The notes under the pieces were generated by a model. It worked only from the letters and a program-made list of their open reading frames with translations. It had not been told where the DNA came from and did no database searches. The translations under genes and the position numbers were made by a program. From positions 4,448,001 through 4,512,000 of the forward strand of contig CBDCXR010000004.1 in assembly GCA_965223845.1 (NCBI GenBank): DNA of 64,000 nucleotides, read 5' to 3'. The DNA comes from Planctomycetota bacterium. GTDB taxonomy: Bacteria; Planctomycetota; UBA8108; SXIK01. Position 1 is the stretch's first letter. Each line of letters starts with the position of its first letter. Of this stretch, positions 28,303-56,993 are shown one piece after another.

Positions 28303-28352
28303 CCCCCTTCGTCTTCCTTCGCGACTCTTCGCGCCCTTCGTGTGAACCTCTT
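28303..28352 (-). repeat. Intergenic repeat family A, copy 3
   Basis: Minus strand reads AAGAGGTTCACACGAAGGGCGCGAAGAGTCGCGAAGGAAGACGAAGGGG, abutting the stop codon at 28351. Confidence 0.75.
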
Positions 28353-31300
28353 ACGGAAGAAGAGGCTCGACCTCGATCGCCGAAACCGTCGGGCCATCCG
28401 CGTCCCCCTGCACGAACTCGATGTCGAGCGCGTCGTCTTCGAGGTCGACCTCGAACGACTTCGTCTCCGTCTCGGCGAATTCGAGATGGTCGAGCGCGTC
28501 GTATCCTTCGAGCACGGTCTCGCCCTCGATGCGCACGTCGAACGTTCGCTGACCGGCCCTGAGGGCAAAGAACTCGCCGAGAGTGAGGGTGACGCGGTAC
28601 CGGCCGCGGGGGAGCGCGAAGCGATAGCTCCCCGCTGAATCCACGACTCCGAAGTATCGCTGTCGCGAGAGGAGACCTTCCTGGTCGCTTCCGGCGGCGG
28701 CTTCGGCGAACTTGCGATTCCGCCGGCCGCGGCTCGCGAAGCGATCCTTTCTCCAGAGCTTGCCGCTCGAATCGGTGAATTCGTCCCCGCCCGAGTTGAT
28801 GCGGATGGCTTTCTTCTCGGAGAGCTCGCGCGCGATCCAGGGACGCGCGCGCTCGTCGGCCTCGGCGACGCGACCTCGACGACGGAGGAAGTCATCCACG
28901 AGGCAGAAGAGATCGTCGAGCTTCTTCCGACTTTCTTCGTCGCTCCGATCGATGAGAAGCGCAGTGGCGCGATCGAGGCTGTTCACGTAGGCGCCAGCGA
29001 TTCCCAGTCGATGCAAAAGGTCGCCGCGGAAGCGCCACGCGTCTGGGTCCTTCTCGGTCGAGTCGCGCGCTTCTTCCTCGGAGAGCAAGCTCAGCCGGAT
29101 CGATGACTCCGCCGCGCGAAAGACGCGCGGCGGCAGGACGCCGCGAATCTCATCGAGAACCGCAGGGCGCTCCTCCGCCGCCGGAAGAAGTGACGCGAGA
29201 CCGGGACTCGCCGAAAGCTCGAGCCGAAGGAGGAGGTCGCTGCTCGCCGGATTCGCCTGATAGATCGCGGCGGCGAGCACGTTTTCACCTTCGCGGAGGC
29301 GTGCCGCGTCGAGGACGTGCTCATGGGTCTCTTGTTCGAGCAGCCCACTGATCGTCGAGAGGGAGCGCACATCCGTGCGTTCGAGCAGAGGTCCCTCCGG
29401 CATATTGCTCCGAAGAAACTCTTCCCCATTCAAGTAGAGCACGAGTCCGTCGTCGCGGAGGAACTTGGCGAGGATCTTCGTGCCCGCCGATAGAGCTTCC
29501 GGATTCACCCGGAAACGCGTTCGCGCCACGTACTTCGTACCTCCTCGCCTCAGCGTCGTCGCGACTCGCTGATCGCCGAAGCCGAGCGGTCCTTGGCCCA
29601 CGTTCCAGGCTTCGTCGTCGAACTCGGGTTTCGTCCAATCGCTCGGAGCGGCGCCTTCGTCGAGGTACGACCACTCCGCGTCCGCGGGAAGGAGCTCGAT
29701 CTCCGCCGCACCGTAAAGCGTCGGCGCCGACGCGAGCGATTCGATCGCGACCTTCGGGTCACGCGCTCGGGCGACAAAGTACTCCGCGAGGAGTAGAGCG
29801 AAAAGCCGCAGCTGCGCCGCGCGCGAGTCGTCCTCCACCGTGACGGCGGCCACGGCTTCGCCGAGGTGCGCGCGAAGATCGCCTGCCGCCGCATCGAGGC
29901 CGACCGTGCCGACGAGGTCCTCGAGGTCGGTGCGCGCGCCGTCCGGATCGCGTGCTTCGCGGCGGATTCGGATCTTCTCGCGAAACAGCTCGGCGATCTC
30001 TTCGGCGCTCGCTCTGCGACTGACCGCGTCAACGATGAGATTCTCGAGCGGAGTGAAGGGTAGATCCGTCGAGGCCTTCAGCCCGACCTCGGCGTGGAGC
30101 CCAGCCAGCACCAAGTCGCGCGGCGCCACGTCGGAGGCAATCTCGAGAAGACGACGCGCCATTTCAAGTCGTTCAGCCTCCATGTGCTCTCTCACCGCCC
30201 CGGCGATGCGCTTCGCGAAGAGCGTCCGCTCCTCGGACACGTCGCTCGCCGGGACGCGCGACAGAACTCGCGCGGCCGCCGTCCAGTTTTGCGCGTCCAC
30301 CAAGATCGACGCCAACGAACGGAGTGCCTCCGGCGGCAGCTCACTCTCCGAATCGGACGATCGCCAGACCGACAACAAGGATCGGTCCGAGCTCGGCGTT
30401 CGAACGAGCGCGGGGACTCCGATGAAATTCGTCTGCGTTCGCATGTTCACGTCCCGCGCGTCGATCCGAAAGTGCGTGAGAAACTCGCCGAGGCGCGGCG
30501 GCGCGGCGGCGAGAGCTTCGACGCGGCGAACGTGGATCGTCCCGCCGCGTTCGCAGATCGCGACGAGTCCCTCGGGGCCGAAATCGACGTAGCTTCCGTT
30601 CGCGTCGATGGCGACCTCCGCCCGGAGAGCTCCGGTGGCCACGGTCCAAATCTGAGCGTTCGGGCTGCTCTGACACACGGTCGCGAGGTACTGGCCGTCC
30701 GGGGAAAACGCCACATCGACCCAACCGCTCGTCGCGAGGGTCCGCGTGACGCGGAGCTCTCGGTCGGGGACGCTCCAGAACGAGACTCGTCCGCCTCCGC
30801 CTGCGGCAAGAACCTCTCCGTCCGGACTGTAGGCGATTCGCGTGATTCCGCTGCGCTCCCCGTCCACCAAGCGACCGATCTCCTCTCCGTCGGCGACGCG
30901 CCAGAGGATTAGGTGTCCGCTTTCGAGACCGGCGGCGATCGTGGTTCCGTCCGGCGAGTATTTCGCGGAAAAGGGTTCCCGCGATTCGAGGAAGGACTCG
31001 CGCGTCTCGCGGGCGATGTCCCAGACGACGACGCCCTCTGCCGTGGGAACGGCGAGACGCTTCGCATCGGGCGAGAATCCCATTCCCGGACTGTAGGATC
31101 CAGACGTCTCGGGGCCGCGGAAGCGCTCGCGAGTGTCGAGCTGCCAAATCGAAACTCCTTGAGCGCCGCGAATCGTTGCCGAGGCGACCCAGTTCCCGTC
31201 GCGCGACACCGCGAGTCCGGTGGCTTGCTCGGCGGCGAGAGTCTCCACGATTTTGCCGGTCGACGGATCCATGAGCCGAAGGCCGTCACCGCCGACGAGG

Positions 31301-34300
31301 AGCTGCTCACCTCCCTTCGCGAAGCGGCAGTTCCAGTAGCGTTGGGGTGGCTCAGCCCGATATCCCGACCTAAGGCCGCGTCCGGGGAGCTCCCAAATGC
31401 CGAGAGCCCCACTCTCGTCGCCCGTTGCGAGGAGCTGACCGTCAGGGGAGAACGCCAGGGATCGCACGTCTCCCGAGCTGGCGGTGAACGAGTGCTCGAC
31501 CTCGCTCGTCGCGACGCGCCGAACGACGACGAGACCCGCGTCGGTGTTGGCGATCCGCTGGCCGTCAGGGGAGAAGGCAATCTCACCCGCTCGCGACATC
31601 CGAATCGTGTGAGCCACGTCGACTTGGCCCTTCGCGTAGGAGAGAAGCGTCAGCTCTTGGGTGACGGGTGCGCCAAAGGCCAGTACCTCCCCGCTCGGCG
31701 AATACTCCAGACGAGTCGCCACGCCGCGGTGGGAAAAGACTTCGCTCCCGTCGTCCACGCCAACCGTCGACACGCTTCCCTCATTGAGTCCCGTGCGCCG
31801 ACTGTACGCGATCAGCGAACCCGAGGGATGGAACGCGAGCCGCCCCACCCGAGCGTTCGCGACGGGAAAGGATCTCGTGACTTCCAGCGTCTTGGCGTCG
31901 CGAAATTCGAGCGCGTCGACGAGAAGGCCCGCGATCAGCGATCCGTCGGGACTGAAGGCGAAGCTCTGGTACGCGAGTCCAAGTCTCCCCGTCACCTCTC
32001 CGCTCGTGAGATCGAAAAGGATGAGCTCGTCGCGCATGGTGGCTGCGAGCGTCTCGTCGGTCGGATGGAACGCCACGCGGGCTTGTGAGGGGGAAAAACG
32101 TCCCGCCCCATCGGGCTGAAACTTGTGCTCGAGCGCGAGCGTCGACACCCGGTGCACCTCGACGTTCCTCAGGGAATCGATCGACGCGAGCCAGCGACCG
32201 GTCGGGCTGAACGCGATGTCGACGACGAGGCCACGCCCGCCATCTCCCTTCGGAGCTTCGAGCTCGACCCCGGCGGGAAAGTTCCAGCGACGGAGCGAGT
32301 AGTCGTTGCTTCCCGAGATCAGAAGAGATCCGTCTCGGGTGAGAGCGAGCGCGCGGACGACTTCGGTGTGCCCCGCGAGGCGCCGGAGTCGCTTCTTTGC
32401 CTCGAGGTCCCAAACGGAGATGTCGTTTCCTTCCGCGCAAATGAAACGCCCGCTATCGGGCGCGAAGAGAACCGCGAGGGTCGGTCCCTCGAATCCCGGA
32501 AGATCCTCGCGAATCTCCCGCGTGTTCACGTCGACGATCGTGATGGGAGTGTCGTCGTCTCCATGGCCGACGACGAGAGCATCGCCACTCGGAGAAAACG
32601 CCAAACAGAACGGTCGCCCAGTGAGCTGGACGAGAGCGTCTTCCCCGGTTCGATCCGTGCTCCAGAGGCGGAGTTCGCCAGTGTCGTGACACGCTGAGGC
32701 GAGGAGCTTCCCGTCCGGGCTGAACGAGAGTGCGTTGATGTACTCCGTGTGTCCCTCCAGCTCGTGCGTGATTTCGAGTGCATCGCCCGCCACCGAGCCG
32801 AGGACCACGCCGCCGCTTACGCTGCTCGCCGCGAAACGCTCGCCGTCCGGGCTGAGGACGACTCGGCGTAAGCTGCCGATTCCGGGCGAGAGAGTCGACA
32901 GCCTCTCGCCCGAGTTCACCTCGTAGCAAACGATGGCTCCGCTCGCCTTCGCGACAAAGATCGCGGAGCCGTCCGCCGTCATGACGACCGAGTTCGAGTC
33001 CGTGCTGTCGTATCGCCGGGTGAGGCCACCGCTATCGACGTCCCAGAGATAGGTCCCCGAGTCCGACACCGTCACGATGCTCTTCTCGTCCGGGGTGAAC
33101 GCGATCCCGATGATCTCTTCGTCGACGCCGGAGAGCGCTCGGAGCCAGAGGGGCGCGACCTGTGTCGATCCTTCTTCGATGAGGTTTCTTGCGGCGCGCC
33201 ATTCCTCGGAATCTGGGCGGAGAAGAACGGGATGCTCGGCCTCGATCTTCTCGTCCGCCTCGGCGCGTCCGTAGCCTTCGAAGCCGATCGCCTTCCCGGC
33301 GAAGAGCCGCGCGGCGAAATGCCGCTTCTCCTCGCGGAGAACGCGCGCGCGCTCGAGCCAGACCGTGCCCTGCTCGTGGCGTGCGAGTTCGGCGAGACGC
33401 GTTGCTTCGTCGCGTGCTTTCTCGGCGTCTCCCTGGGCCTTTTCCGCCGCCGTCGCGTTTTCTTCCGCCAATCGCGCGTTCTCGTCGGCGTTGCGCTTGA
33501 GGCCGAAGGCCCAGATCGCGAGCAAGATGGCGATCACCGCGAGAACGCTGACTCCGGCGCCGAACGCTCGGAGATTGCGCGCAGCCTTGGCTCGACTCTC
33601 GGCGAGCGCGTTCGCCTGGGCGAGCTCGCGTTCTCGCGCGGCTTCCTCCGCGCGCTCTCGAGCGACGGCTTCGGCCTGACTCTCGTCGAGGAAGTCCATC
33701 GTCTCCGTGAACTCGCCGCCGTACTGGTCGGCCCAGGCGGCGTTCGGTTTTTCCGTCTCGCGCCATGCACGGGAAATCTGGAGATCGGGGCCGCGAAAGA
33801 GGCCAGCCTTGCCGGCGATCCAGAGAGCCGCCGTGTCGGCGAGTCGCCGATAGATCCGCGCGGACTGTGCCTCTTCTTCGACCCAGCCGCGGAGGTGAGT
33901 CCAGACGCGCATGAGGCTCTCGTGCGAGAGATCGACGACGCTTCCCGGTTCGAGCGACTGCGCGGCCGCGGGCATGAGGAACGTAACGCCGGGTGCGCGG
34001 TAGGCGTCGACGATCGGGCGGACGTCTCCCTCGGGAACGCCGACGATCGCGGCGAGGTCGCGAAGGCGCGTCGGCCGGCGGATCCCGCGGTGGTCGAGGC
34101 CGCGTTCGGTGAGTGCTTTGAAAATGCGTGCGGCGATGTGTCGATCGGCGTCGCGCGGGAACGCGTCGTAGACCTCGTCGGCGTGGCGCGAGAGCGCTTC
34201 TTCCATTCCGCCGGAAGCTTCGTAGTGCGGAAGGTCAATCTCGTCGGCGTCGACGGTGTCGTCAGCTTCGTTCTGCGCCCGCGAACCGATCGTGCGTTCC

Positions 34301-35106
34301 CACTCGTCCCACGTGCGCATGAGCGCGTGCTGAAGAATCGGAAGCTGATCGGGATCGTCTCCGACTGCGTTCAAAAGATGCTGAACGAGGCGATTCGAGA
34401 TCGCCGCGCCGCCGACTCTCACCGGACCTTCGATGGCCGCGCGAAGCTGCGTGCGCTTAAGGCGCGGAATGAGAAACTCGCCCTTGTTGACCGCCTCGGC
34501 GAGGCCTCGCAGACGCGCGCAGTCGCCGAGGTAGTCGGAGCGCATCGTGAGAACGATGTAGATCGGACATGCATCCGAACGAGCCGCCTCGAGGAGCAGG
34601 TTGACGAAGGCTTGCGCCTGGTCGTGGCGGCCGGAGCCGCTGTCGCGGAACCGGAAGATCTCCTCGAACTGGTCGACGATGATCGCGAGCTTGACATCAG
34701 GTTCGAGCTCGGACTGCTGGCAAGCTTCGACGAGGCCGAGGCGGCTGTGCCGGAGGGTGGACGTGACGCGCGGGAGGGACTCGGCGTCGTCCGGGTCGTA
34801 AAGCTCGGCGCGACAGAGCGCTTTCGCGAGGTTGCCGATGGGATCGCCGCCGGGACGAAGGACGGCGATCTCCCAGTTCGAGCCCGCCTGGGTCATCGTG
34901 CCGCCGTGGAGCTCGGGAAGGAGCCCGGCGCGGACGAGCGAAGACTTGCCCGAACCGGACGCACCGACGACGGCGATGAAGCGGTGCTCGCGAAGCCGCG
35001 TGAGAAGCTCGGCGGACTGGTCTTCGCGTCCGAAGAAGAGGTAGTCTTCGTCGCTCTCGAATGGGCGGAGACCCGGGAAGGGATTCAGTCGTGAGGAATC
35101 GTTCAT
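28351..35106 (-). CDS. nSTAND1-type NTPase + coiled coil + TM + WD40 propellers + helical region + galactose-binding-like beta-sandwich + malectin (paralog 1)
   Basis: [14 protein letters not shown]; Walker [10 protein letters not shown]; Walker B IIVDQFEE; LPILQHAL; DLSHESL; TM ~33500-33570; many FSPDG/GH..W repeats; FDDEAW..DDG..YLNGEE..GENVLA; [21 protein letters not shown]. Confidence 0.9.
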
Positions 35107-37910
35107 GGCGAGTCCTCCGCATCGTTCGGGGCGGATCGACGTAAGGCTTCGACGAAGGGCGCGAGAACTCTCGGATCAAAAGCGCCTTCCTCGCGGACGA
35201 CCTCGGCGAGGCGCGTGCGGAAACGTTCCTTCCGGCGATCGAACGGCGGAGCGATGTAGACGAGCTGCTGAACGAGCTCGCGCGTGCGGCCGTAACCGGC
35301 GGCTTTGAGGAGTCCGCGAAGCTTGATGTCGACCCAGCCGTGACGCGCGGCGCCATAGAAGATGATCGCGGCGTCGCAGTCGACGAGGTTCTGGCGGTGC
35401 GTCTCGGCGGCTTCGGATTCTTCTGCGTCGAAGTCGGGGAGGCTCACTTCGAAACCCTGATCGAAGAGGAAGTCTTCGATCGGCTCGATCGCTTCGGCGT
35501 CTTTGACGTCGCAGATGAGGTAGACGCGCGCCGGTCCTTTCGCGCGCGAATCGTCGTTTGCGGGCGTCTCGTCGATCGCCCCGGGAGGCGGAGTGAGCTT
35601 TTCGAGAAGGAGCTCTTTCGCCGCCTCGATGTGACTTTCGACGAGCTCGGCGCCGAGGTGTTCGGCCGGATCGCGGCGGATTCGTTCGATCCACTTCTGC
35701 TGACGCGCATCGCGGACTTCGAGGTCGCCCGGAATCCAGATAAGGCGCTCGAGCCCGCGAGCGCGGGACGCCTCGGAGGCGAGGCGGTTCTGCACTTCGA
35801 GAATCGATTCGCTCGAGCCTTCGGGCACGACGCCGTGGAGGCTTCCGACGATGTGGACCGCGTAGTCGGCGCGTTCGAGATAGCTGCTGAGCACCGCTTC
35901 GAGCTCCGAGCTGACGAGCGGAAGCTGCTGGTCGGGGAGGACTCCGTGTCCGCTTGCGAGGAGCTCGCGGCGCATCGCGTCTCGTTCCGAGCTGAGATCG
36001 GATGTCGTCGTCGCGAGGTAAACGAGCTTTCCCGAATCCGGCGCGGCGAGATCGGTGGAGCTCGACGTGCTTTCGCGAAACGCGCGGAGAACCTGACTGA
36101 TTTCGCGCGCGAGATCGTAGACGCGAGCGTGGTAGCGTTCCGTTGCCGCGGCGTCGAAGGAGCCGCCGAGCTCGCGGACGCGTCCGGTCGCCGGGTCGAC
36201 GTCGAAGAACTCGAAGTCGATGAGGGAGCCGAAGAGCTCAGCGAGGCGGACCGGCATCTCGCGTTCGGCGACGGGGTGCTTCACCACCTTGAAAAGGCGC
36301 GACTTCGACTGCGGAGTTTGCTCATCGAGAGCGACGGCGTCCCAGAACGATTCGACGTGACGGCGGCAACCCGTCGACTTCACAAAGGGAGGCGAGAGTA
36401 CCGAGACGAGCGTTTTGACGCGCGGGAGCTGCTCGAGCAGCCCTTCGTCGATCGCGGCGGTCTCGGCCGGACCGGGCAGACGACAGATCTTCACGCGCTC
36501 GCCGGAAATCTGTTCGACGCGAATCTCGAGGTTCCGGTGAAGCTGCGCGATCCAGCCTTCCTTCTCGTTGGCGAGCGGCTGATCGTCGACGCGGGCGTAG
36601 CTGATGAAGACGTCGCTCTCGGTGAGGACTTCGGGCGTGATCGGTGGCGGCATTGCCTCGACCTCGATGGACGCACCGACTGCGGCAGGAAGAGCAGAGG
36701 TTTCGGTCGCGATCGACGCGGTCGCACCCGCGGGTGAGCCGGAAGCCTGGTCGCGCGCGAAGTTCTTGAGGTCGATGAGAAGATCGCGCGCCGATTGATA
36801 CCGTCGCTCGATATCCTTCTCGAGGAGCTTTCGAACGATGCGATCGAGCTCGGGAGGAACCTCGTAATTGAACCGAGCGATCGCGTCGGGCTGCGCGCGA
36901 AGAACCTTGTCGGCAACCTCGGCGTACGTGTCGCCGGCAAAAGGTAGACGAGTCGTGAGAAGCTGAAAGAAGACGCCGCCGAGCGAGAAGAGATCGCTCC
37001 GGTGATCGACGTCGCGACCGAGAACTTGCTCGGGACTCATAAAGGCGGGAGTGCCGAGAATCGTTCCGGGTTTGGTGACGAGGTTCTCCGCGGATTCCTC
37101 GCGACTCCCCGAAGGATCGACGTCGACTCGCTTCGCGAGACCGAAGTCGAGGATCTTCACCTGCCCGCGCTCGCTGAGGCTGATATTCGCGGGTTTGATG
37201 TCGCGGTGGACGATGCCCTTTGCGTGAGCGGCGTCGAGCGCGTCGGCGATTTGCGTCGCGACATCGAGAAACTCGTCGAGCGGGATCGGGCCGTCGGCGA
37301 TGCGCCGATCGAGACTCTGACCTTCGACGAGCTCCATCGCCATGAACGGCCGGCCATCCTCGCTCTCGCCGACCTCGAAGATCATGCAGACGTTCGGATG
37401 GCTGAGCGCCGAGGCGGCGCGGGCTTCGCGAAGGAAACGGCGTCGCTGCTCGGGATCGCCGGCGAGCTCGGCGATGAGGAACTTGAGCGCGACGGGTCGC
37501 TGAAGCCGGGCGTCGACGGCGAGGTAGACTTCGCCCATTCCGCCTCGGCCGAGGAGGCGTTCGAGGCGGTAGTGGGTGGAGGGGGTTGGGGCCGGGGGGT
37601 GGTTCGGGGGAGTAGGGTTCGGCGAGGCGGAGCTCGATGAGCGGGACGTGGGCGCGGACGCGGAGTCTTTAGGATTCGCGGGCGTAGCGTCCGGATCAGC
37701 GTCGGACGGAACGCCGCGGACGAGGGGAGCGGGCCGGGTTCGCTCGGTGTCGTCCGATTCGAAAGACCGGTCGTAGTCGAGGAGGGACTCGACTCGCGAG
37801 CGAACCTCGGGATCCGGGCAGCGTTCGAGTTCGGCCTGCTGCTCGGCGGGGGGTAGGCTCGCAAGCTCCTGGAAGAGAGCTTCGACTTTCTTTCTTTGGT
37901 CGGCGTTCAT
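35103..37910 (-). CDS. Hanks-type Ser/Thr kinase fused to TIR-like, DUF4062-like and second TIR-like domains (paralog 1)
   Basis: [21 protein letters not shown] and MSPEQ kinase motifs; DVFISYA; [13 protein letters not shown]; [15 protein letters not shown]; ATGA overlap with the STAND gene. Confidence 0.9.
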
Positions 37911-43460: not shown

Positions 43461-43528
43461 CGATGGATTTCCTTCTCGAAGCGCGGTTGTCGTTCGGGCC
43501 TGAACGCGATTTTGGGCGAGTCGACGAT

Positions 43529-44496: not shown

Positions 44497-44643
44497 ATCC
44501 CCTCGTTCGCCCGCTGTGTGGGCTCCGCCCCCGCGTCTTTTCGCTTTCTTGAGGGGCCCAGCGCCCGGAATTCGGATGGTCTCCGACGCTCTCAACCGTG
44601 GCGGGAATCGCCGCCGACGCAGGGTTCAGCTCGAGCCAAAGTC

Positions 44644-47271
44644 TTGAATCCCGAGATCAAACGAACCAGCCAAGACCTCTTCGACCGCGTTCTGAAGCAG
44701 CCTCCAAACGAACGCCGTTCGTACCTCGCCGCGAACTGCCCCGACGATGAGGTGCGAGCGGAGGTCGAGCGTCTACTCGCGATCGACGTCGAGCTAGGCG
44801 GCACAAAGTCGCTCGAAGCGAGTGACCCCGCTCCGAGCTCGACCGCCGCGACTCAGGAGTACGTGCGCGAGAAAGGCTCGATCATCGCTTCGCACTTCGA
44901 GATCGTCGAGCTCCTCGGTCGAGGAGCGATGGGTGAAGTGTATCTCGCGAGCGACCGTCGTTTGGAACGACGGATCGCCCTCAAGTTTCTAAGCGAGGCG
45001 CACGCTCGAGATCCTCGTCTGCGAGCTCGGTTTTTCGCCGAGGCACGAGCCGCATCGGCGCTCAATCATCCGAACGTTTGCATTCTCCACGAAGTCGGCG
45101 AGCTCGAAGACGGCAGTCCCTTTCTCGCTCTCGAATACCTCGAGGGAGGAGACCTCGAAGCAAGGCTCAGCGAGGGACGGGTGAGCCTTCGGGATGCGCT
45201 CGCCTGGTCGATGCAGCTCGCCGATGCGCTCGACGCCGCCCACTCCGTCGGACTCATTCACCGCGACATCAAGCCGTCGAACCTTCACATCACGCCGCGC
45301 GGACAGCTCAAGATTCTCGACTTCGGCTTGGCGAAACGATTCGAAGGGAAGGCGCTCGCGAGCGATGTTTCACTCCCCGGGTCGATCGTCGGCACACCAC
45401 TCTACATGAGTCCCGAGCAGGCGCTCGGCCATCCGCTCGACGCGCGGAGTGACCTCTTCAGCGCTGGCGTCGTCATGTACGAACTGCTCACGGGAGAGCG
45501 TCCGTTCTCGGGCGATACGTTCGCCGAAGTCGCCGTTCAGCTCGTCCACTTGGATCCAGAACCGGTTTCTCGGCGGAAACCCAAGGTCCCTCGCTCGGTC
45601 GAGCGCATCGTCGAAACCTGCATGGCGAAAAATCCCGAGGAGCGATACCCGTCCGCTCGAGATCTGCTCGTCGATTTGAAGCGCGTCTCGGACGGTGGCG
45701 ACCTGCGCGCTACGCCGTCTGAATTCGTCCCTTCGTTCGTCGACTCGAATGTCGAACAGACAACCGATCTCGGCGTCTCGGCGGATGCGTCGGGAACCGG
45801 CGAACCGCGCGGCGGCGATGTCTTCATCAGCTACGCCGCCGTCGACGATCACGCATTGCCGAACGACGCGCGCGGCTGGATTACCGGCTTTCATCGCAAC
45901 CTCGAAGTGCGCATCGAGCAACTCACCGGAGAACGAGTGCGCATTTGGCGGTCATCACTCGATTCGACCCGGGACGGAGAAGCGAGCGCGGAGGAGCTCG
46001 ATCGCGCGAGGACCGTGGTCTCGGTCGTGTCGCCCCCGTACATAAAGTCTCCGAGCTGCTGGGAGCCGGTCGTCCAGAGTCATGACGAGAGCGAGAACTC
46101 AGACGATTCGGCACGACTCTTCAAGGTCGTCAAGCGACCCGTGCCGGCGGCCGAAATTCCACCGCGCCTCCGTCGCATCTTTGAAGGCATCTCAGGTCAC
46201 GAATTCTTCGACATCGATCCTGCGACCGGCCGCGTACGCGAGTACACGGAGACCGGGGCGCAGACGGTCGCAGAGCGCTACCAGGAGCGCATCTACGATC
46301 TCGCCGAAGAGATTTCTTCGGCTCTCCGAGACGCGCGCGAGTCTCAGATCGCCAGCGCTTCCGAGTCGGGCAACCAGAAAACCGTCTATCTCGCAACGAC
46401 GACTTCGGATCTCCGCTCCGAGCGCGATCGCTTGCGGCGCGAGCTCGTCGCGCGCGGACATCTCGTCTTGCCGGATCGTCCGCTTCCTCTCATCGGCGCG
46501 GAGCTTCTCAGTGCGGTGCGGTTGTCCCTCGAACGGGCCGACTTTTCCGTGCACCCGGTTGGAAGTTATCTCGGAGTCGTTCCCGAAGGACTAGACGAAT
46601 CGGTCGCGGAGCTCGAAAACCGGCTCGCGGCCGAGCGTTCTCGACAAGCCGGGCTCGAGCGATTGATCTGGACTCCGGACGTACGAAAGATCGACGATTC
46701 GCGTCAGGCGAGCTGGGTGGAAAACTTGCGGGCTGATCCCCGGGAGCAGGAAGGTGCCGAGCTCGTCGAAGGAAGTTTCGAGGTTTTCCGCGGCGAGCTC
46801 GTCGATCTACTCACCGGCAAGCGACGTCAAACCGGCGCGGCCGGGAAGTCGACGGGCGCGCCGCCACAACTTTTTCTCCTCTGCGTTCCTGACGACGAGC
46901 GTGCCGTCGAGCCGATCGAGGACTTTTTCTTCGATCGAGGCGTCGAGGTCGTGCTCCCCGCGTTCGCTGACACTGAGCGCGATCAGGGTGAGCTTCACGT
47001 TCGTCGTCTCACCGAATGCGACGCGGTCCTCGTTTACTTCGGTGCCGCTGAGCGTCACTGGGTCGAGTTCATGCTGCGCGACGTCGCGAAGGCGGCCGGT
47101 TATCGAGACCGGGGCGCGATCGAGCATTGCGTCGTGTACGTCGCTCCGCCAATCGACCGTCGAAAAGAGCGGTTCCGGAGCCTCACGGCGGACGTCGTCC
47201 GTGCCGAAGGCGAATTTGATCCGAGCGCTTTGACCGAATTCGCCGAGCGACTCCGGGAGGGGAGGTCATGA
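44644..47271 (+). CDS. Hanks-type Ser/Thr kinase fused to TIR-like, DUF4062-like and second TIR-like domains (paralog 2)
   Basis: GRGAMG, HRDIKPSN, DFG and YMSPEQ motifs; DVFISYA; [10 protein letters not shown]; CDAVLVYFG; collinear with 35103-37910; TTG start inferred by alignment to paralog 1. Confidence 0.9.
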   Translation: MNPEIKRTSQDLFDRVLKQPPNERRSYLAANCPDDEVRAEVERLLAIDVELGGTKSLEASDPAPSSTAATQEYVREKGSIIASHFEIVELLGRGAMGEVYLASDRRLERRIALKFLSEAHARDPRLRARFFAEARAASALNHPNVCILHEVGELEDGSPFLALEYLEGGDLEARLSEGRVSLRDALAWSMQLADALDAAHSVGLIHRDIKPSNLHITPRGQLKILDFGLAKRFEGKALASDVSLPGSIVGTPLYMSPEQALGHPLDARSDLFSAGVVMYELLTGERPFSGDTFAEVAVQLVHLDPEPVSRRKPKVPRSVERIVETCMAKNPEERYPSARDLLVDLKRVSDGGDLRATPSEFVPSFVDSNVEQTTDLGVSADASGTGEPRGGDVFISYAAVDDHALPNDARGWITGFHRNLEVRIEQLTGERVRIWRSSLDSTRDGEASAEELDRARTVVSVVSPPYIKSPSCWEPVVQSHDESENSDDSARLFKVVKRPVPAAEIPPRLRRIFEGISGHEFFDIDPATGRVREYTETGAQTVAERYQERIYDLAEEISSALRDARESQIASASESGNQKTVYLATTTSDLRSERDRLRRELVARGHLVLPDRPLPLIGAELLSAVRLSLERADFSVHPVGSYLGVVPEGLDESVAELENRLAAERSRQAGLERLIWTPDVRKIDDSRQASWVENLRADPREQEGAELVEGSFEVFRGELVDLLTGKRRQTGAAGKSTGAPPQLFLLCVPDDERAVEPIEDFFFDRGVEVVLPAFADTERDQGELHVRRLTECDAVLVYFGAAERHWVEFMLRDVAKAAGYRDRGAIEHCVVYVAPPIDRRKERFRSLTADVVRAEGEFDPSALTEFAERLREGRS

Positions 47272-50200
47272 CGTCGCGCATGCCGAACCCCTACCCCGGT
47301 CTCCGTCCGTTCGATACGGAAGAAGACTATCTCTTCTTCGGCCGTGAAGAGCAGACGGCCGATCTGCTCGAGCTCCTCCGGTCGAATCGATTTCTCGCCG
47401 TCGTGGGTACGTCCGGGAGTGGCAAGTCTTCCTTGGTGCGCGCCGGCCTCATTCCCGGGCTCGTCAAGGGTTCGCTCGACGGGGCGAACACGCGCTGGGA
47501 GATCGCCGTCGCGCGTCCCGGTGGGAATCCCCTGCGGCGTCTCGCCGCGGGACTCTGCGAAGCCGGCCTCTTCGACTCGAGCGATGTCGAATCCGTTCCA
47601 CGCGTCGTCGCGACGCTCCGAAGGAGCACGCGGGGACTCATCGAAGCCGTTCGTCAATCCGGCCGCGCCGCCGATTCGAAGTTTCTCCTCGTCGTAGATC
47701 AATTCGAGGAGCTCTTTCGCTATGCGAGCGACGACGTAGAGGCTGGCGACGCCAGTCGAGCGTTCGTGAACTTGATTCTCGAAGGGGCGGCTCAAGCCGA
47801 GCTCCCGATCTACGTCGTCGTGACGATGAGATCGGATTACCTCGGCGACTGCGCTCGCATTCCCGGACTCGCCGAAGCGATCAACTCGGGAGAGTACCTC
47901 GTTCCACGCCTCGGGAGAGACCAGGTCCGCCGCGCGATCGAAGGACCGGCGCGAGTCGGAGGAGCCGGAGTTACGAAGCGCTTCGTTCAGCGCCTCCTCG
48001 GCGACCTCGGCGACGATTCGGATCAGCTTCCCGTTCTCCAGCACGCTCTCATGCGAGCGTGGGATGCACGAGGCGACGAAGAAGATCTCGATCTCGATCA
48101 CTACGGCGCGATCGGCGGATTGTCTCACGCGCTCTCTCAACACGCGGACGAAGTCTACGACGGGCTCGCGAGCGACGAACTTCGAAGTACGGCCGAGCGG
48201 ACCTTCAAGACTCTCACCGTGACCGAGAGCGGCGAGCGCGGTGTCCGGCGTCCGACTCGAGTGACTCGACTCGAAGCGGTCACTCGCGCGGAGCGCACAC
48301 AGGTTGAAGCGGTCGTCGAAGCGTTTCGCGCGCCCGGCGTCTCGTTCTTGATGCCCGGAGAAGCCACCCCGCTCGCCGACGACCCCGTGATCGACATCTC
48401 GCACGAGAGTCTGATGCGCGTTTGGACGCGGCTCCGGACGTGGGTCGGCGAGGAAGCGCAGTCCGCCGCGATCTACCGCCGCCTCTCGGAATCCGCTGCG
48501 CTTTGGCGAGAGGATCGTGCGGGGCTCTACCGTCACCCCGATCTCGAGGTCGCGCAGTCGTGGCGCCGGGAAGCGCGACCGAATCCGAGCTGGGCGAGTC
48601 TCTACGCACCCGGCTACGAAAATGCGATCGCGTTTCTGACGGAGAGCCAGGAGAACGCCGACGCGGAAGAGCTCGAGCGTGAACGAGCCCGAGAGCGCGA
48701 GCTCGCGCAGGCTCGTGAGCTCGCCGAAACGAAGTCGCGCGAAGCTGAAGCCGTCGCCCGGACCGCGCGCAACTTTCGGCGCTTCGCGATCGGACTTGCC
48801 GTGCTCGCCGTCGCCACGCTGGCGCTCGCGATCCAGGCACTACTCCTTTGGCGCGACGCCGAGGAGAGCCGGAAGCTCGTCTCCGAGAGCGAAGAGACGG
48901 CACGCCACGAACAGGGTGTCGCTTGGTTCGAGCAGGCGCAGCGACTTCGCGCGGAGGAGAGGCACTTCGCGGCCGAGCTCCTCGCGGCTCGGACCTTGGG
49001 CTTCGAAGGCGTCGACACGATCGAGGACGAACTGGGCGGAACCGGCGACCAGCGCATCGACCGATCGCTCCTCAGGCCCGACAGCGAGGAGGCGGATTCC
49101 GTCCGTGCGTTCTTGTCTGCGTCGATGCTCGACGAACCACTCTATCGCAGCCCACAAGTAGCGCCCCCGAATGCGCGATGCGTTTGCTGGACGCCCGATG
49201 GCAAGCTGGTTGTCGGAACCACGAGCGGCAGGGTCGCTCTCTACGATCCGGAAAGAGGAGAACGCGAAGGAGAGTTCGCCGCGCACGACACCGAGGTTTC
49301 GTTTGTCGGGCCGACGTCCGATGGGAGCGCGGTCGTCACGACAACGGTCCGAGCGGATACGATTCGCTGCCACGACCTCTCGACGGGGAACGAACGATGG
49401 AGTGTCGCCGGTCGCGGCCGGAGCTCCCACGCCGCGCTCTCGTCCGACCGATCCTTGCTCGTTGTCGCCGGATCGACCGGGGTAGTTCGAGTAGACACAA
49501 CGAATGGCGCCGTTTTGGGCGAGTCCGACGGTGGCGCCACAGGAGTCGCATTCTCTCCCGATGGTGAGCGTTACGCGGCACTCCACTCGGACGGCTGGCT
49601 CCGCGTCCGGACGCGCGAAGGGACCCTCGTCGCTTCGGCCATTCATGGCGCGGGAGTCACTCGTGGACTGGCGTTCTCTCCGGACGGCCGGCGGATCATC
49701 ACCGGAGCGCTCAATTCGTCTGCGACCATCGAGCCCGCCAAAGTTTGGGAGGTCTCGAACGACGGAGAGTTGCGGGTCGTCGACGAGTGGGACGTTCCGC
49801 ACAGCGAAGCTCGATCATCCAGTTGGTTCGGACTGAGCCGAATCGTTGCCGCGCGACCGTCGGGTGAAGACGTCGCCGTGTTCGGGGGGTCGGGCGGTCG
49901 ACTACAAATTCGTCGCATCGCCGATGGCACGCCCGTCGGCGTACTCGACGCTCACGGCCGGCTCATCGTCGACCTCGCCGTCGATCCGACCGGCCGGCGT
50001 CTCATTTCGGTAGCTCCCGGTGAGCCGATGCGACTCTGGGACTTGGTGGAGCTCCGCGAAATTTCGAAGCTCGGCGACGTCGAGATCGCTCGGTCGGTCG
50101 ATCACACGCGGGACGGTCGATTCGTCGCCTCGGCCCATGCGAACGGCGAGATCCGAGTGCTGCATTCGCGAACGGGTGCGGTCATCGCCAACCATCGCAC

Positions 50201-53200
50201 CGATGTCGCGCTCGATCTCATCCGTTTCTCCCCCGACGGCACTCGGCTCGCCGCGGGCGGTCGACGAGGGATTCGCGTTTTCGACGTGACGGACTCGATC
50301 CTGACTCAGCCCGATCCTCTGCCTGGTGAGACGGTCTCGCCCGCCGAGTTTAGCGAGCGCGCGCGGATCGAAGGGCTTCGGTTCGCCTGGAGTCCCGACG
50401 GAGATAAACTCGCCTACAACGGAACGTCGTTCGGCGTCTTTATCTGGGACGCGGAGAGTGGAGTGTCACGTCTCGTCGTCGACAGCAGTTCGGGGCGCTA
50501 CGTCGGCCTCGCGTTCACTCCGGATGGCAAGCAGCTCGTCGTCTCGTCGCTCGCGAAGACGGAGCTCTTCGAGATCGGGGGAACGAAGACGGCCGAGTGG
50601 GCCGAGATCGGCTCAAACGCGGGCCTCGTCTTCCAACCGGGTGGGGATCTCATCGCCAGCGTCGCTCGAGATCATCTGGCGATCTGGCGCCGTGCCGATC
50701 CACCCGTTGTCGTGGGGCGTCTCGACCATTCGGGAGCCGAGTATGACACGCGGCTAGAGTTCTCTCCGGACGGCCGATTCCTCGCGGTATCGGGTGGCGA
50801 CCGACTCGTGCGCGTCTACGATGTCCACCGTTTGACTCTGCTCGCGCTCCTCGAGGGTCACGCGGGAAACACACTCGACGCGAGCTTCGCGCCGGACGGA
50901 CGCACACTCGCTACGACGAGTCTCGACAATACGGTGCGCTACTGGAAACTCGGACACCACGTCGACCGAGACAGTCTCGTCGTCGGGGGAGTTCGCCATC
51001 GGAAGATCCAGTTCCTCGACGACAGCACGCTCGTCGCGTTCGGCGCGGAGAGCAAGGTCGCGATCGTCGATCGAAGGCTCGGGACGGTTCGCCGCGTCCT
51101 CGACGGCGCGCCCTATCAATCCGGAATTCGCTGCGCCGCTGGACCGGCAACCGAGTTCGGCGGACCGTTCATTTCGCTTAGTGCGCAAAGCCATACCGCT
51201 CTCTGGGATGTCGCGAGCGGTGAAATGATTCGGCGTTTCGCGAACGACTCGTCGTACAACACTCGCGCGACATTCGGACCGGAGAGCCGATGGCTTGCTG
51301 TGCTCCGCGGGCCGCGCCTCGATCACTTCGACATCTCGACTCGCCGGTTACGGAAGATCGGGAGCGGCGTCGATCTCGTCGACATCGCGGCGACCTCGGC
51401 GGGCGAGCTTCTCGCGCTCGGGATCGACGGAAGGGTTCGCGTCATCGATCCCACGACTGGAGAGGAGCGCGAGGTTTTCGGTTCTGTCTTAAGTGAGACG
51501 TCTCGAAACGTCGCCCATTCGCCTCGGGAATTCCATCTCTCGCGCGACGGCAGCACGCTCGCGATCCAGTTGCCGAGGTCCGTGTCGATTCTGAACATGA
51601 GGGAGAAGCGCGAAACGGCACGCTTCGACGTCGTCGGCCCCGGCGCGCAATTCTTCGATCTGGCGATCAACGAGGACGGCAGTCGATTGGCGGTGTGCGG
51701 TGGAGGGGTCGCGCGTCTCTGGTCTTCGTCGGGCGAGAAGATCCGTGAATACTCGCGGCCCGACTTCGACGACGATTTCGTACCGTACGGAGTGGATTTC
51801 AGCCCGGACGGGCGCTGGCTGGCCGGCGACAGCTTCGGCTCGACGATCGCACTTTGGTGGGTCGAGCCCGAGGAGCGGCGTCGTGACCGGCTCTCGCACC
51901 TACTCGAGAACTTTGCGCTCGACGGTCGGCGGATCGTGCCGCAGACGGTCTCGAAGGTGCTCTACGCCGATCCTCCTGTCAGGTCGCGCGCGCCCGAGCG
52001 CGATCCGGTCGCCGAAATGGAAAACCTCGTGCTCGCGGGTGGATTCGACGCCGCGGTGTCAGGAACGTCGCGCCTGTCGCCCGAGCTCCGCTCCCGGATC
52101 TCGCCGGCCATCGCTGACGCGATCTTTCATCGAGCGGGGGTTCTCAGTCGAAACGGGAGGACGGACGAAGTCGTCCGGATCGTGAGCGAGGCGCAGGAGC
52201 TCGTCGGGAACGAGAGCGAACAGTGGTATCTCCTCGAACAGCGCACGGCGGAAGCGATTTGCCGGGGCGGTCGGCTCGCGGAGGGGATCGATCGCTTCGA
52301 CGACGCCATCGGTCGAGCGATGGGAGCCGGGCTCGATTCGATCGCGCGACGTCTCGCGCGCGCGAGTGTTTCGGTACTCCTTGATCTGGAAGACGTCGAC
52401 GGCGCGAAAGATGCGTTCGAGAAGCTGCTCGCCCTGCCGAACTTCGTAGACGAAGGCCGGCGGGCAAACGAGATTCAAAGACACGCGCGCCTCGTCGTCC
52501 GCCAGGCGACGCGGGATTCAGAGACAGAGAGCACGAAGACCGATCGCGCGCTCGCGGCCGTCTTTGTCGACGTCGCGCTCGAAGCCGCGCGTCAGACGCC
52601 CCGGCTCGATACGTTGCCCGAGCTCTCAACGCTCGTCGAGCGAGCAAACGCCGGCCGAGAGCCCGTCGAGCTCGTATCCTCGAGCTCCTCGTGGAGAGTG
52701 TCGCCGGTAGATACGACGGTGGGCGCAGATTGGAACGCCTCCACCTTCGACGACAGTGCCTGGCCCAGCGTAAATCCGCCGATCTTGTTCTCGACTACGT
52801 CCGAACGCCCCGAGCTTCGCTCACCCGAAACGACACTCTTCGCCAGGGGCCGCTTTCAGGTTTCGCCCGGTGGATTGCCAGAGGGCTACGGACTCGCGAT
52901 CCAAAGCAAGTGTCTACCGGGCGCGAGAGTCTTCCTGAACGGCGTCGAGCTATTTCGGCACGGACTACCGGAGGGTGAGATCGATGCGACAACTCGCGCT
53001 CTCGACGGTGCGCACGGCCATGCGTGGCCACGGCGCGCGGACGCGCGACTCGCGGAGCCGCTACGTAAGGGGGAGAACGTCGTCGCGATCGAGTTGCATC
53101 GCAATGATGGCAGCGCATTGTTCTCGCTCGAGGTCGTCGCGCGCGTTACGCCGGCGTCGTATCTCGCGGCGGCGGACCGGAGTCGGGCTCTTGAGGTCGT

Positions 53201-53483
53201 CAGCGACGTTTTTCCGGCGAGCGTTCTCGAGCGGTTGGGGCCGCGGTTGCGTTTCGTTTTTGCTGACGACCCCGGCTCGCTAGGCGATGCGGGAGATGCG
53301 GGAGATGCGCAGGCGTGGCTCGAGCGGGCTCGGGTTCAGCGTGTGCTCGGGCGAAGTGAGCGGGCGCGGGGGGCGTATTCGCAGGCGGTGGAGGCGGCGG
53401 TTGTGGAGGGGGATGCGGATACGGAAGCGATCGCGCGAGGGGAGATGGAGGCGCTCGGGCTTCGGTTGCCGAAGAGTCCTTGA
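47268..53483 (+). CDS. nSTAND1-type NTPase + TM + WD40 propellers + helical region + galactose-binding-like beta-sandwich (paralog 2)
   Basis: NPYPGLRPF, GTSGSGKSS, VVDQFEE, LPVLQHAL and DISHESL motifs; TM ~48783-48851; WD40 repeats; FDDSAW..FLNGVE..GENVVAIELH; ATGA overlap with the kinase. Confidence 0.9.
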   Translation: MTSRMPNPYPGLRPFDTEEDYLFFGREEQTADLLELLRSNRFLAVVGTSGSGKSSLVRAGLIPGLVKGSLDGANTRWEIAVARPGGNPLRRLAAGLCEAGLFDSSDVESVPRVVATLRRSTRGLIEAVRQSGRAADSKFLLVVDQFEELFRYASDDVEAGDASRAFVNLILEGAAQAELPIYVVVTMRSDYLGDCARIPGLAEAINSGEYLVPRLGRDQVRRAIEGPARVGGAGVTKRFVQRLLGDLGDDSDQLPVLQHALMRAWDARGDEEDLDLDHYGAIGGLSHALSQHADEVYDGLASDELRSTAERTFKTLTVTESGERGVRRPTRVTRLEAVTRAERTQVEAVVEAFRAPGVSFLMPGEATPLADDPVIDISHESLMRVWTRLRTWVGEEAQSAAIYRRLSESAALWREDRAGLYRHPDLEVAQSWRREARPNPSWASLYAPGYENAIAFLTESQENADAEELERERARERELAQARELAETKSREAEAVARTARNFRRFAIGLAVLAVATLALAIQALLLWRDAEESRKLVSESEETARHEQGVAWFEQAQRLRAEERHFAAELLAARTLGFEGVDTIEDELGGTGDQRIDRSLLRPDSEEADSVRAFLSASMLDEPLYRSPQVAPPNARCVCWTPDGKLVVGTTSGRVALYDPERGEREGEFAAHDTEVSFVGPTSDGSAVVTTTVRADTIRCHDLSTGNERWSVAGRGRSSHAALSSDRSLLVVAGSTGVVRVDTTNGAVLGESDGGATGVAFSPDGERYAALHSDGWLRVRTREGTLVASAIHGAGVTRGLAFSPDGRRIITGALNSSATIEPAKVWEVSNDGELRVVDEWDVPHSEARSSSWFGLSRIVAARPSGEDVAVFGGSGGRLQIRRIADGTPVGVLDAHGRLIVDLAVDPTGRRLISVAPGEPMRLWDLVELREISKLGDVEIARSVDHTRDGRFVASAHANGEIRVLHSRTGAVIANHRTDVALDLIRFSPDGTRLAAGGRRGIRVFDVTDSILTQPDPLPGETVSPAEFSERARIEGLRFAWSPDGDKLAYNGTSFGVFIWDAESGVSRLVVDSSSGRYVGLAFTPDGKQLVVSSLAKTELFEIGGTKTAEWAEIGSNAGLVFQPGGDLIASVARDHLAIWRRADPPVVVGRLDHSGAEYDTRLEFSPDGRFLAVSGGDRLVRVYDVHRLTLLALLEGHAGNTLDASFAPDGRTLATTSLDNTVRYWKLGHHVDRDSLVVGGVRHRKIQFLDDSTLVAFGAESKVAIVDRRLGTVRRVLDGAPYQSGIRCAAGPATEFGGPFISLSAQSHTALWDVASGEMIRRFANDSSYNTRATFGPESRWLAVLRGPRLDHFDISTRRLRKIGSGVDLVDIAATSAGELLALGIDGRVRVIDPTTGEEREVFGSVLSETSRNVAHSPREFHLSRDGSTLAIQLPRSVSILNMREKRETARFDVVGPGAQFFDLAINEDGSRLAVCGGGVARLWSSSGEKIREYSRPDFDDDFVPYGVDFSPDGRWLAGDSFGSTIALWWVEPEERRRDRLSHLLENFALDGRRIVPQTVSKVLYADPPVRSRAPERDPVAEMENLVLAGGFDAAVSGTSRLSPELRSRISPAIADAIFHRAGVLSRNGRTDEVVRIVSEAQELVGNESEQWYLLEQRTAEAICRGGRLAEGIDRFDDAIGRAMGAGLDSIARRLARASVSVLLDLEDVDGAKDAFEKLLALPNFVDEGRRANEIQRHARLVVRQATRDSETESTKTDRALAAVFVDVALEAARQTPRLDTLPELSTLVERANAGREPVELVSSSSSWRVSPVDTTVGADWNASTFDDSAWPSVNPPILFSTTSERPELRSPETTLFARGRFQVSPGGLPEGYGLAIQSKCLPGARVFLNGVELFRHGLPEGEIDATTRALDGAHGHAWPRRADARLAEPLRKGENVVAIELHRNDGSALFSLEVVARVTPASYLAAADRSRALEVVSDVFPASVLERLGPRLRFVFADDPGSLGDAGDAGDAQAWLERARVQRVLGRSERARGAYSQAVEAAVVEGDADTEAIARGEMEALGLRLPKSP

Positions 53484-56980: not shown

Positions 56981-56993
56981 CCATCTCCTGCGA

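Follow-up and report, generated by a model that had tools for sequence, protein, structure and literature searches.

A transmembrane nSTAND1 protein paired with a TIR-fold kinase next to an ECF sigma factor gene in a planctomycete: a candidate outside-in signaling pathway

A 64,000-nucleotide stretch of a 7.9-Mb planctomycete genome (Planctomycetota bacterium, GCA_965223845.1, contig CBDCXR010000004.1; G000:C4:4448001-4512000), hereafter the window, contains two divergent pairs of paralogous genes, each encoding a kinase with TIR-fold domains and a membrane STAND protein, and one of these pairs lies directly behind the gene of an extracytoplasmic function (ECF) sigma factor. The question raised by this locus is whether these genes form one signaling pathway, leading from the outside of the cell to transcription, or whether the immune-type families among them indicate an anti-invader system. 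A sequence-only reading of the window had proposed the route from ligand to STAND oligomer, TIR-scaffolded kinase and ECF-dependent transcription. The analysis presented here identifies the kinase–TIR-fold gene and the membrane nSTAND1 gene as an obligate, translationally coupled pair, and it gives roughly even chances to a pathway that, in this lineage, would run from a transmembrane STAND receptor through the TIR-scaffolded kinase to the TIGR02999-type sigma factor.

Both divergent pairs, their common domain order, their ATGA junctions and the sigma gene preceding the plus-strand pair were found exactly where the sequence-only reading had placed them (Table 1). The 4-nt overlap of the kinase and STAND genes is present in both pairs of the window and in a third pair of the same genome (C4:1867619-1877121), which has no sigma gene. 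KIN-A and KIN-B are 45% identical and STAND-A and STAND-B 32%, in each case over nearly the full length, with the NTPase of the STAND proteins much better conserved than the remainder. The likelier start of KIN-B is a TTG codon at 44644, which gives a protein of 875 aa with a beginning resembling that of KIN-A. A tblastn search of the window with the sigma factor, KIN-A and STAND-A returned the known genes only, with no second sigma gene and no pseudogene remnants between the pairs. A fourth nSTAND1 gene of the genome, in a different setting, was observed at G000:C4:6047344-6053003 (L002), where a SIR2_2 and TIR_2 gene (7345-8676; TIR_2 69.1 bits) is followed, with a 4-nt overlap, by the nSTAND1 gene (8673-13004). 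The latter encodes a protein of 1443 aa with one transmembrane (TM)-like segment near residue 456, so that a classic effector pair is built there on the same membrane-STAND chassis.

Table 1. Coordinates of the paired genes, their domains and the associated genes (positions counted from the first nucleotide of the window).
Feature	Position	Strand	Remarks
STAND-A	28351..35106	-	2251 aa; nSTAND1 NTPase, one TM helix, WD40 propellers, helical region, GH2-N-like jelly roll, Malectin (open reading frame, Pfam)
Malectin domain of STAND-A	28375..28809	-	residues 2100-2244; PF11721, 54.8 bits, cut-off 23
GH2-N-like sugar-binding jelly roll of STAND-A	29200..29709	-	residues 1800-1969, 170 residues
Single TM segment of STAND-A	33499..33555	-	residues about 518-536; hydropathy peak 2.57, no other
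KIN-A	35103..37910	-	935 aa; sigma-type N-terminal motif, Hanks kinase, three TIR-fold domains (open reading frame, Pfam)
TIR-fold module of KIN-A	35106..36653	-	residues 420-935; domain 1 TIR, domain 2 DUF4062/NDT-like, domain 3 TIR-like (AlphaFold2, Foldseek)
N-terminal motif of KIN-A	37755..37889	-	about 45 aa, residues 8-52; hidden Markov model match, 2.9e-15
AhpC/TSA(-Redoxin), cytochrome c and Cu2_monoox_C-like protein	41610..43658	-	about 680 aa; Pfam; divergent from sigma gene
ECF sigma factor, TIGR02999/PF07638 type	43876..44496	+	probable ATG start 43903; QATA in sigma2.2
KIN-B	44518..47271	+	917 aa from GTG; N-terminal motif, kinase, three TIR-fold domains
STAND-B	47268..53483	+	2071 aa; nSTAND1 NTPase, one TM helix, WD40/PD40 propellers, GH2-N-like jelly roll, C-terminal TPR; no Malectin
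TM helix of STAND-B	48789-48845	+	hydropathy scan
GH2-N-like jelly roll of STAND-B	52665-53156	+	same domain as in STAND-A

The pairing of the two genes is conserved far beyond this genome. At least 360 homologues of the TIR-fold module, with about 47% identity, were found at E ≤ 0.001 among 8000 candidates scored. Nearly all of the 120 homologues listed carry a kinase, four carry a Guanylate_cyc domain instead, and a few have neither; one further locus (L005) likewise carries Guanylate_cyc. Scanning species-representative genomes by pattern detected 62 loci in Planctomycetota and Verrucomicrobiota, and Acidobacteriota contributed two more. Where the downstream sequence is long enough (58 loci), an nSTAND1 open reading frame (ORF) immediately follows in the same orientation in 57, the only exception (L064) being a fragmentary match. 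The 4-nt stop/start overlap recurs in 15/54 loci, and in most of the others the two genes lie within about 30 nt of each other. At L023 a single ORF encodes the kinase, domains 1 and 2 of the module and then the nSTAND1 N-terminus. This single natural fusion suggests that the two proteins act together, and the absence of domain 3 from it hints at a docking function of this domain. No additional fused forms were found at E ≤ 1e-10 among proteins of 1638-4675 aa, which is weak evidence, and L023 is the sole fusion seen. The gene order expected from the sequence-only reading is thus conserved in other genomes as far as the nSTAND1 partner is concerned, while a sigma gene directly upstream is found in 3/54 loci only.

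The copies of our genome cluster with L030, L035 and L031 (support 95) in a quick maximum-likelihood tree built from 58 rows of the module. An arrangement like that of the window was observed in a Pirellulaceae metagenome-assembled genome (MAG), where divergent pairs stand back to back (L032; 139-8228, minus strand, and 9014-19119, plus strand) across a 0.8-kb gap without a sigma gene. Two pairs also share a contig in two other cases (L042/L043 and L054/L061).

Both local STAND proteins start with the NTPase, at residue 8-9 and with no domain N-terminal to it, and their matches to nSTAND1 (PF20703) reach 323.2 bits in STAND-A (residues 9-431) and 338.6 bits in STAND-B, the cut-off being 27.1. 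The Walker A (GxSGSGKSS) and Walker B (hhhhDQFEE) motifs are intact in both proteins; in the translation of STAND-A the former was read as a 10-residue stretch (not shown) and the latter as IIVDQFEE. Each of the two has one hydrophobic segment, about 80 to 90 residues past the end of the Pfam NTPase match, flanked in STAND-A by long charged helical stretches. A single hydrophobic helix 40 to 60 residues past the NTPase match is likewise present in all 43 partner STANDs with enough sequence, and only L038 and L039 show a second, weaker hydropathy peak. Because the NTPase requires nucleotide from the cytoplasm and, as the translations of STAND-A and STAND-B show, the flank N-terminal to the TM segment is the more basic one, the N-terminus is predicted to be inside.

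The region past the TM helix, which would then lie outside the cytoplasm, consists of WD40 propellers in 11 of 14 partners examined and of ankyrin repeats in the other three, members of a marine clade; PA14, 3keto-disac_hyd and TPR domains occur as single cases. Many WD40 families match in both STANDs of the window. The modeled jelly roll of STAND-A (predicted local distance difference test, pLDDT, 89.9) superposes on 6d50_A with Z 14.3 and a root-mean-square deviation (rmsd) of 2.5 over 134 aligned residues, and about 30 of the next rows are the same N-terminal domain of GH2 enzymes. This domain was also identified in at least 12 partner STANDs. Malectin was not found in STAND-B at E ≤ 1 (Pfam). 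The predicted structures support the presence of glycan-binding-type folds on the outer side, and the proposal of a membrane STAND-WD40 protein with a glycan-binding-type sensor agrees with these results, with the Malectin part applying to STAND-A only. The annotation with profiles recovered Pkinase, nSTAND1 and WD40 families in both copies of the pair.

The soluble partner contains a Hanks-type Ser/Thr kinase domain (Pkinase, 161 bits in KIN-A and 160.5 bits in KIN-B), whose motifs are legible in the translation of KIN-A (24 residues, not shown). No hydrophobic segment was detected in the kinase proteins by the hydropathy scan, consistent with the suggestion that the kinase has neither a TM helix nor a sensor of its own. 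The three TIR domains attributed to it are weakly recognizable by sequence and were borne out by structure. In Pfam searches TIR_2 remains below its threshold of 28 in both kinases (23.7 and 19.8 bits), DUF4062 exceeds its cut-off of 24.7 in KIN-A (31.1 bits) and the third copy (28.3 bits) and has no match in KIN-B at E ≤ 0.01, and the best Pfam match of domain 3 has an E-value of only 0.24. The AlphaFold2 model of KIN-A residues 420-935, built from 121 aligned sequences, consists of three alpha/beta domains with a mean pLDDT of 90.0. When all 516 residues of the model were searched at once with Foldseek, most matches were spurious and spanned several domains; the domains were resolved by VIA re-scoring of the Foldseek matches. 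Domain 1 (module residues 11-196) has a TIR fold, with the best match to RPV1 (5ku7_A; Z 14.0, rmsd 2.7, 148 aligned residues) and further matches to RUN1, RPP1, SPARTA, SARM1 and MyD88. Domain 2 (209-356) has the fold of DNPH1/Rcl and the N-glycosidases BcmB/MilB (4kxl_B, Z 12.7), and its profile finds the solved DUF4062 protein KpSwz (10wc_A; E = 0.0015, residues 4-76). Domain 3 (373-511) matches the TIR domain of TIR-STING (9lmq_D, Z 12.1); its top clusters in the ESM Atlas are unnamed, and DUF4062/TIR clusters score only 0.81-0.86. Despite the thin sequence signal, the model and the structural matches indicate that the three TIR-fold domains are real. An internal triplication of the module was considered and rejected, as a profile–profile comparison of the three domains detected no mutual homology and the common fold is visible by structure only.

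The sigma factor of the window is assigned to TIGR02999 (186.2 bits, cut-off 126.15) and PF07638 (184.1 bits, cut-off 21.1). Its sigma2.2 region reads LQATALVHEAY where canonical ECF sigma factors have DAED, and the Thr of QATA is invariant in 9/9 aligned sigma factors. According to the available text of the papers on the ECF43 group (PMC13147305, PMC8999054, PMC7826278), an uncharged, Thr-bearing sigma2.2 activated by phosphorylation of this Thr is the hallmark of that group. Comparison of the motifs therefore supports the view that the window sigma factor is of the phospho-regulated type. No anti-sigma family was detected among the window neighbors by Pfam, which leaves ORFs without Pfam matches in the interval 38296-41238.

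KIN-B is encoded directly downstream of the sigma gene, and the N-terminal kinase motif to which the sequence-only reading had drawn attention is both real and specific. A hidden Markov model (HMM) of this motif matches KIN-B with 6.3e-18, the module kinases of 7/62 loci, all three local copies and 7/119 of the other listed homologues, and it also matches kinases without the module that adjoin sigma genes. All eight sigma genes in the fetched loci adjoin a motif-bearing kinase. Our genome has 11 motif-bearing ORFs, nine of which lie within 222 nt of a sigma gene of this type, with a total of 15 PF07638 matches in its 7.9 Mb. These associations support the role of the N-terminal motif as a mark of sigma-coupled kinases. 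On the quick tree its distribution requires at least two to four gains or losses. A database protein of 601 aa (P0039) carries the motif (HMM E = 1.8e-09) immediately ahead of the TIR-fold module and lacks a kinase domain. This protein is either a deletion product or a sign that the motif can function in the absence of a kinase, possibly in sigma sequestration. A CxxC...CxxC zinc-ribbon-like stretch was noticed N-terminal of some module kinases, where it replaces the sigma-type motif (L031, 8975-11467; L049, 2201-4830) or precedes it (L023, 3231-10292).

Among the 54 of 62 loci with at least 700 nt upstream, a PF07638 sigma gene stands directly upstream on the same strand in three (L004, L024 and L043). 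In three more it is present in the cluster, raising the total to 6/54: at L015 and L036 another kinase gene lies between, and at L035 the sigma gene is divergent with one gene between. At L005 a sigma gene located within 10 kb is paired with its own kinase. The Pirellulaceae MAG of L035 has the same four genes as the window, namely the sigma gene (61% identity), the AhpC-like gene (57%), the kinase-module gene and the nSTAND1 gene, and this clustering of orthologues indicates that the sigma linkage is conserved in the clade of the window and L035. The merger of the sigma factor and the pair into one system, as originally proposed, therefore holds for a minority of the loci; it represents one wiring of a modular core, since the sigma gene and the motif are each found in a minority of the loci and the output may elsewhere be a cyclase or nothing. 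The kinase–sigma interaction, for which a structure prediction had been suggested, gained weak support: the co-fold of the sigma factor with the motif scored 0.60 against 0.01 for the best control, with a partner pLDDT of at least 75 and 95% or more of the contacts shared between runs. Of 157 solved complexes 116 reach the mark for such co-folds, as do 2/215 mismatches; passing scores that do not exceed 0.60 came from just 18 of the 157 solved complexes and from both of these mismatches. In the description of the tool, a pass of this weak class is wrong in the majority of cases if the guess was not probable from the outset.

Taken as a pathway, these parts could operate as follows. The receptor would consist of a cytoplasmic NTPase, one membrane helix embedded in a long stalk of charged helices, and an extensive outer part that diverges rapidly and is made up of propellers and glycan-binding-type folds. 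Its soluble partner would combine three TIR-fold domains, serving mainly as an assembly scaffold, with an exchangeable N-terminal output, here the Hanks-type Ser/Thr kinase. An outer ligand, possibly a glycan, would bind the sensor and lead to NTP-dependent oligomerization of the NTPase; the TIR-fold modules would cluster on the oligomer, with domain 3 as a possible docking piece, and proximity would activate the kinase domains. In this lineage, the kinase may hold the sigma factor via its N-terminal motif of about 45 aa and phosphorylate the Thr of QATA, making an inactive sigma factor competent. The activation of a sigma factor by phosphorylation was demonstrated, in the available text of the reports, for the ECF43 systems EcfP/PknT and EcfK/PknS (PMC13147305, PMC8999054). 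A candidate target is the divergent AhpC/TSA–cytochrome c–Cu-monooxygenase-like gene. The pairing of the genes, the topology features, the folds, the association of the motif with sigma genes and the sigma2.2 motif are observed, and the ligand, the binding steps and the phosphorylation are the parts of this scheme that we infer.

Several observations weigh against such a pathway. The module is present in 3/401 sampled genomes of the phylum, our genome included (a count that scored the three best first-look candidates per genome and may be too low), and phyla are interleaved on the quick tree; rarity, patchiness and multiple copies with divergent sensors are typical of conflict systems. TIR, DUF4062 and STAND are hallmark immune families. 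The predicted topology derives from hydropathy and charge, and WD40 and ankyrin repeats are unusual outside the cytoplasm. The glycan-binding character of the outer region follows from fold, which says nothing of the ligand. No sigma gene is present in the cluster of 48 of the 54 loci, and KIN-A and the third copy, the two motif-bearing ORFs of our genome without an adjacent sigma gene, are 5.9 kb and 48 kb away from one, respectively. A bipartite 5-mer/4-mer search in the 220 nt upstream of nine sigma genes found no shared promoter motif, the best one occurring in three sequences, the same as in shuffles, and no regulon emerged from it. All signaling steps are predictions from sequence comparison and modeling.

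The strongest rival, possible but on our estimate unlikely, is an anti-invader system of the abortive-infection type, in which the STAND protein senses phages or other invaders at the cell envelope. In such a system NAD+ would be depleted by the TIR and DUF4062 domains as effectors, the kinase would have a regulatory or second effector role, and the neighboring sigma gene would be of secondary importance. Such a function is suggested by the families themselves: in the available parts of the literature, predicted counter-invader systems are the setting from which the nSTAND1 clade was defined (Kaur, Iyer, Burroughs, Aravind 2021, eLife, PMC8195603), with TIR and kinase among the effector domains tied to it. 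DUF4062 is a proven NADase effector in Swarozyc and NIR systems, and DUF4062/NIR and TIR serve as NADase effectors in Swarozyc (KpSwz), PsAvs2, Vulcan and Vesta (bioRxiv 2026.05.01.722283, 2026.09.04.749371); the DUF4062/NIR proteins depend on a catalytic Glu (E97 in KpSwz; E108, E98 and E103 in the others). The fourth nSTAND1 gene following a SIR2-TIR gene, the patchy distribution with phyla mixed on the tree, and the multiple pairs, with sensors 32% identical and a transposase fragment between those of the window, fit the same explanation.

The residues of the module argue the other way in the local copies. HMMER aligns the module pattern S-P-P-F-x-K-S-x-x-C-x-x-E to S..F..S.WC..E of TLR6, and this alignment places the canonical TIR Glu (WCxxE) at module position 99. 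KIN-A has H at this position, KIN-B has P and the third copy has Q, so that the canonical Glu is missing from all three; the residue is E in 35/58 sequences of the loci and our genome (absent in 23/58) and in 71/121 homologues (absent in 50/121). Its retention in 71 homologues favors the anti-invader function and suggests that catalysis may matter in most of the family, whereas its loss in the remainder, and in all local copies, points to a scaffold rather than an enzyme. E278 is the sole acidic residue of domain 2 that is invariant, and S283 is invariant as well; position 288 is Q in 119/121, position 302 is E in 26/121, no Glu is invariant in the helix 284-299, and the alignment to KpSwz ends at residue 76, short of E97. 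Complementary active sites, in which either Glu99 or Glu302 would always be kept, were rejected, as both are missing in 17/58 and 30/121 sequences. On the 17/58 figure, and as far as the alignment tells, the role conserved in the module is more likely a structural one, and some members of the family may in addition be catalytic. KIN-B has E instead of Q at position 288, and no branch of the module tree is longer than that of its module (45790-47268; branch length 1.53). A different activity may have been retained or restored in this copy.

The genomic context likewise gives little encouragement to an anti-invader function. Among 101 flanking ORFs of 30 loci (the nearest, up to two on each side) no recognizable defence family was found. 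In PADLOC-DB v2.0.0, KIN-A and KIN-B match PD-T4-6, mad6, MkoA and PglW, in each case through nothing but the kinase domain (residues about 110-410). A single 18-bit P-loop match was obtained for STAND-A and none for STAND-B and the sigma factor. The layout of Avs or bacterial NLR-type antiviral STANDs, one cytoplasmic polypeptide that combines an N-terminal effector, the NTPase and a C-terminal sensor, is not found here, the effector-like domains being separate and the TM helix dividing the NTPase from the sensor. The outputs are signaling domains, kinase or cyclase, and the kinase carries a dedicated sigma-type motif.

A nucleotide-signal relay, in which clustered domain 1 makes an NAD-derived signal and domains 2 and 3 bind the nucleotide and switch the kinase or cyclase allosterically, appears decidedly unlikely. 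The nucleotide-binding DNPH1/N-glycosidase fold of domain 2, with its invariant E278 and S283 and nearly invariant Q288, could fit binding without cleavage, the likeness of domain 3 to the TIR of TIR-STING and the existence of cyclase variants agree with it, but the TIR Glu is lost in 50/121 homologues and all local copies, the KpSwz alignment stops short of the DUF4062 catalytic Glu, and the ligand is hypothetical. Least probable of all is an incidental neighborhood, with the kinase acting on the STAND protein or other substrates and the motif serving a purpose unrelated to sigma binding, because, against the loci lacking a sigma gene, the orphan state of KIN-A and the third copy and the weak co-fold, stand the 9/11 motif ORFs close to one of so few sigma genes, the 8/8 sigma genes next to a motif-bearing kinase, the orthologous clustering in L035 and the conserved Thr of sigma2.2. 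These last two explanations are less likely than both the STAND–kinase–sigma pathway and the anti-invader function.

The STAND–kinase–sigma pathway has its closest characterized relatives in the ECF43-type pairs EcfP-PknT of Vibrio parahaemolyticus and EcfK-PknS of Xanthomonas citri, where, as in the window, the sigma gene adjoins a Ser/Thr kinase gene. The sigma2.2 motif QATA compares with QTTA in the ECF43 consensus and QATE in EcfK, as given in the available text (PMC13147305, PMC8999054), and the kinases on both sides have a helical N-terminal extension, of 81 residues in PknS. PknT and PknS are, however, membrane receptor kinases with their own sensor, whereas the window kinase is soluble, with three TIR-fold domains and a separate membrane STAND. 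Planctomycetal kinase-linked groups (ECF59-62 and ECF217) are also mentioned in the portions of this literature at hand, and the window sigma factor is likened to ECF43 by its motif. In contrast to these characterized pairs, the nSTAND1 systems are predicted only. As far as the accessible parts of PMC8195603 show, those systems share with the window proteins the NTPase clade PF20703 and a sensor of C-terminal repeats; they contain death-like adaptor domains (EADs), none of which was found in the window proteins. Here, by comparison, the STAND is predicted to cross the membrane, the effector domains reside on a protein of their own, and in one subclade the output is wired to a sigma factor. Domain 2 resembles the DUF4062/NIR proteins in its Pfam match, its match to KpSwz by profile and its NDT/TIR-like fold, and differs in having no invariant Glu in the expected helix, in lying between two TIR-fold domains and in its fusion to a kinase. 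In the available portions of the published work on nSTAND1, DUF4062 and membrane STAND/NLR-like proteins (NLR, NOD-like receptor) no description of the pair was found. The same holds for the wiring to the sigma factor, the correlation with the motif, the domain 3 fold, the sensor domain of the GH2-N type and, in this clade, the missing TIR Glu. To this extent the combination is uncharacterized, as the sequence-only reading had suggested, and the architecture of the core pair may already be catalogued.

A conserved third gene was rejected, the flanks of the 30 loci being heterogeneous, with only AhpC-like and PQQ_2 genes recurring. The AhpC-like gene occurs in three genomes (the window; L035, 6757-8862; L030, 6897-8867) and is co-directional with the pair in the latter two, at L030 from an upstream position; by this association only, it is a candidate member of the regulon. 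A gene for a PQQ_2/BamB-like beta-propeller protein is located shortly downstream of the nSTAND1 gene at L030 (17939-19585), L035 (17970-19595), L039 (19182-20387) and L045 (20615-21439), and its product may be an accessory partner in the outer compartment. The local copies are flanked by genes for sulfatases, pectate, alginate and rhamnogalacturonan lyases and a SASA esterase (window 16878-27659 and 54862-62463; L001, 17172-19744). A role as regulator of a polysaccharide locus is a possibility only, as the flanks of the relatives do not consistently contain genes of carbohydrate-active enzymes. Other neighbors in the window include the planctomycete-type families PSCyt, DUF1501 and DUF1553 (Pfam). 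An integrase-core fragment (rve_3, 76.1 bits, 137 aa) lies between the two pairs at 39256-39669 on the minus strand, beside ORFs without Pfam matches (38296-39060, 39971-40303 and 40354-41238). Its position suggests that a rearrangement may have parted KIN-A from the sigma gene.

In the Toll/IL-1 receptor pathway of animals, signals pass from a TLR via MyD88 and IRAK to a transcription factor, and bacterial STAND/NLR-type proteins and TIR domains are known as cytoplasmic sensors and killers of infected cells. The window genes resemble the animal pathway by analogy only, in the succession of an outer repeat sensor, one TM helix, oligomerization, a TIR-fold adaptor, a kinase and a transcription factor, and domain 1 superposes on the TIR domains of MyD88 and TLR (8yym_A, Z 12.5; 7ylg, Z 12.6). 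They differ from it in that the STAND NTPase, and not receptor TIR domains, would drive oligomerization, and in that adaptor and kinase are one protein; there is no sign of common descent. It is tentatively proposed, as a reading that we hold to be rather doubtful, that in the Planctomycetota–Verrucomicrobiota–Chlamydiota (PVC) group the STAND protein reads extracellular glycans or foreign surfaces in a Toll-like outside-in pathway, via the TIR-fold adaptor-kinase to the sigma factor, with the core re-plugged into cyclase or NADase outputs in other lineages. If so, prokaryotes would here provide a first case of a transmembrane NLR-type receptor whose output is transcriptional.

The conserved module of about 500 residues, with about 47% identity across phyla, and the L023 fusion lacking domain 3 offer handles for experiments. 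Parts of the immune type are arranged here across the membrane, with the predicted sensing half outside the cytoplasm and a kinase, elsewhere a cyclase, as output. If the chain from STAND to sigma factor is true, an immune-type oligomerizing switch can serve as a receptor for outside signals, ECF43-like sigma/kinase pairs would have a new kind of input, and bacteria would possess a counterpart to the animal logic of receptor, TIR adaptor, kinase and transcription factor.

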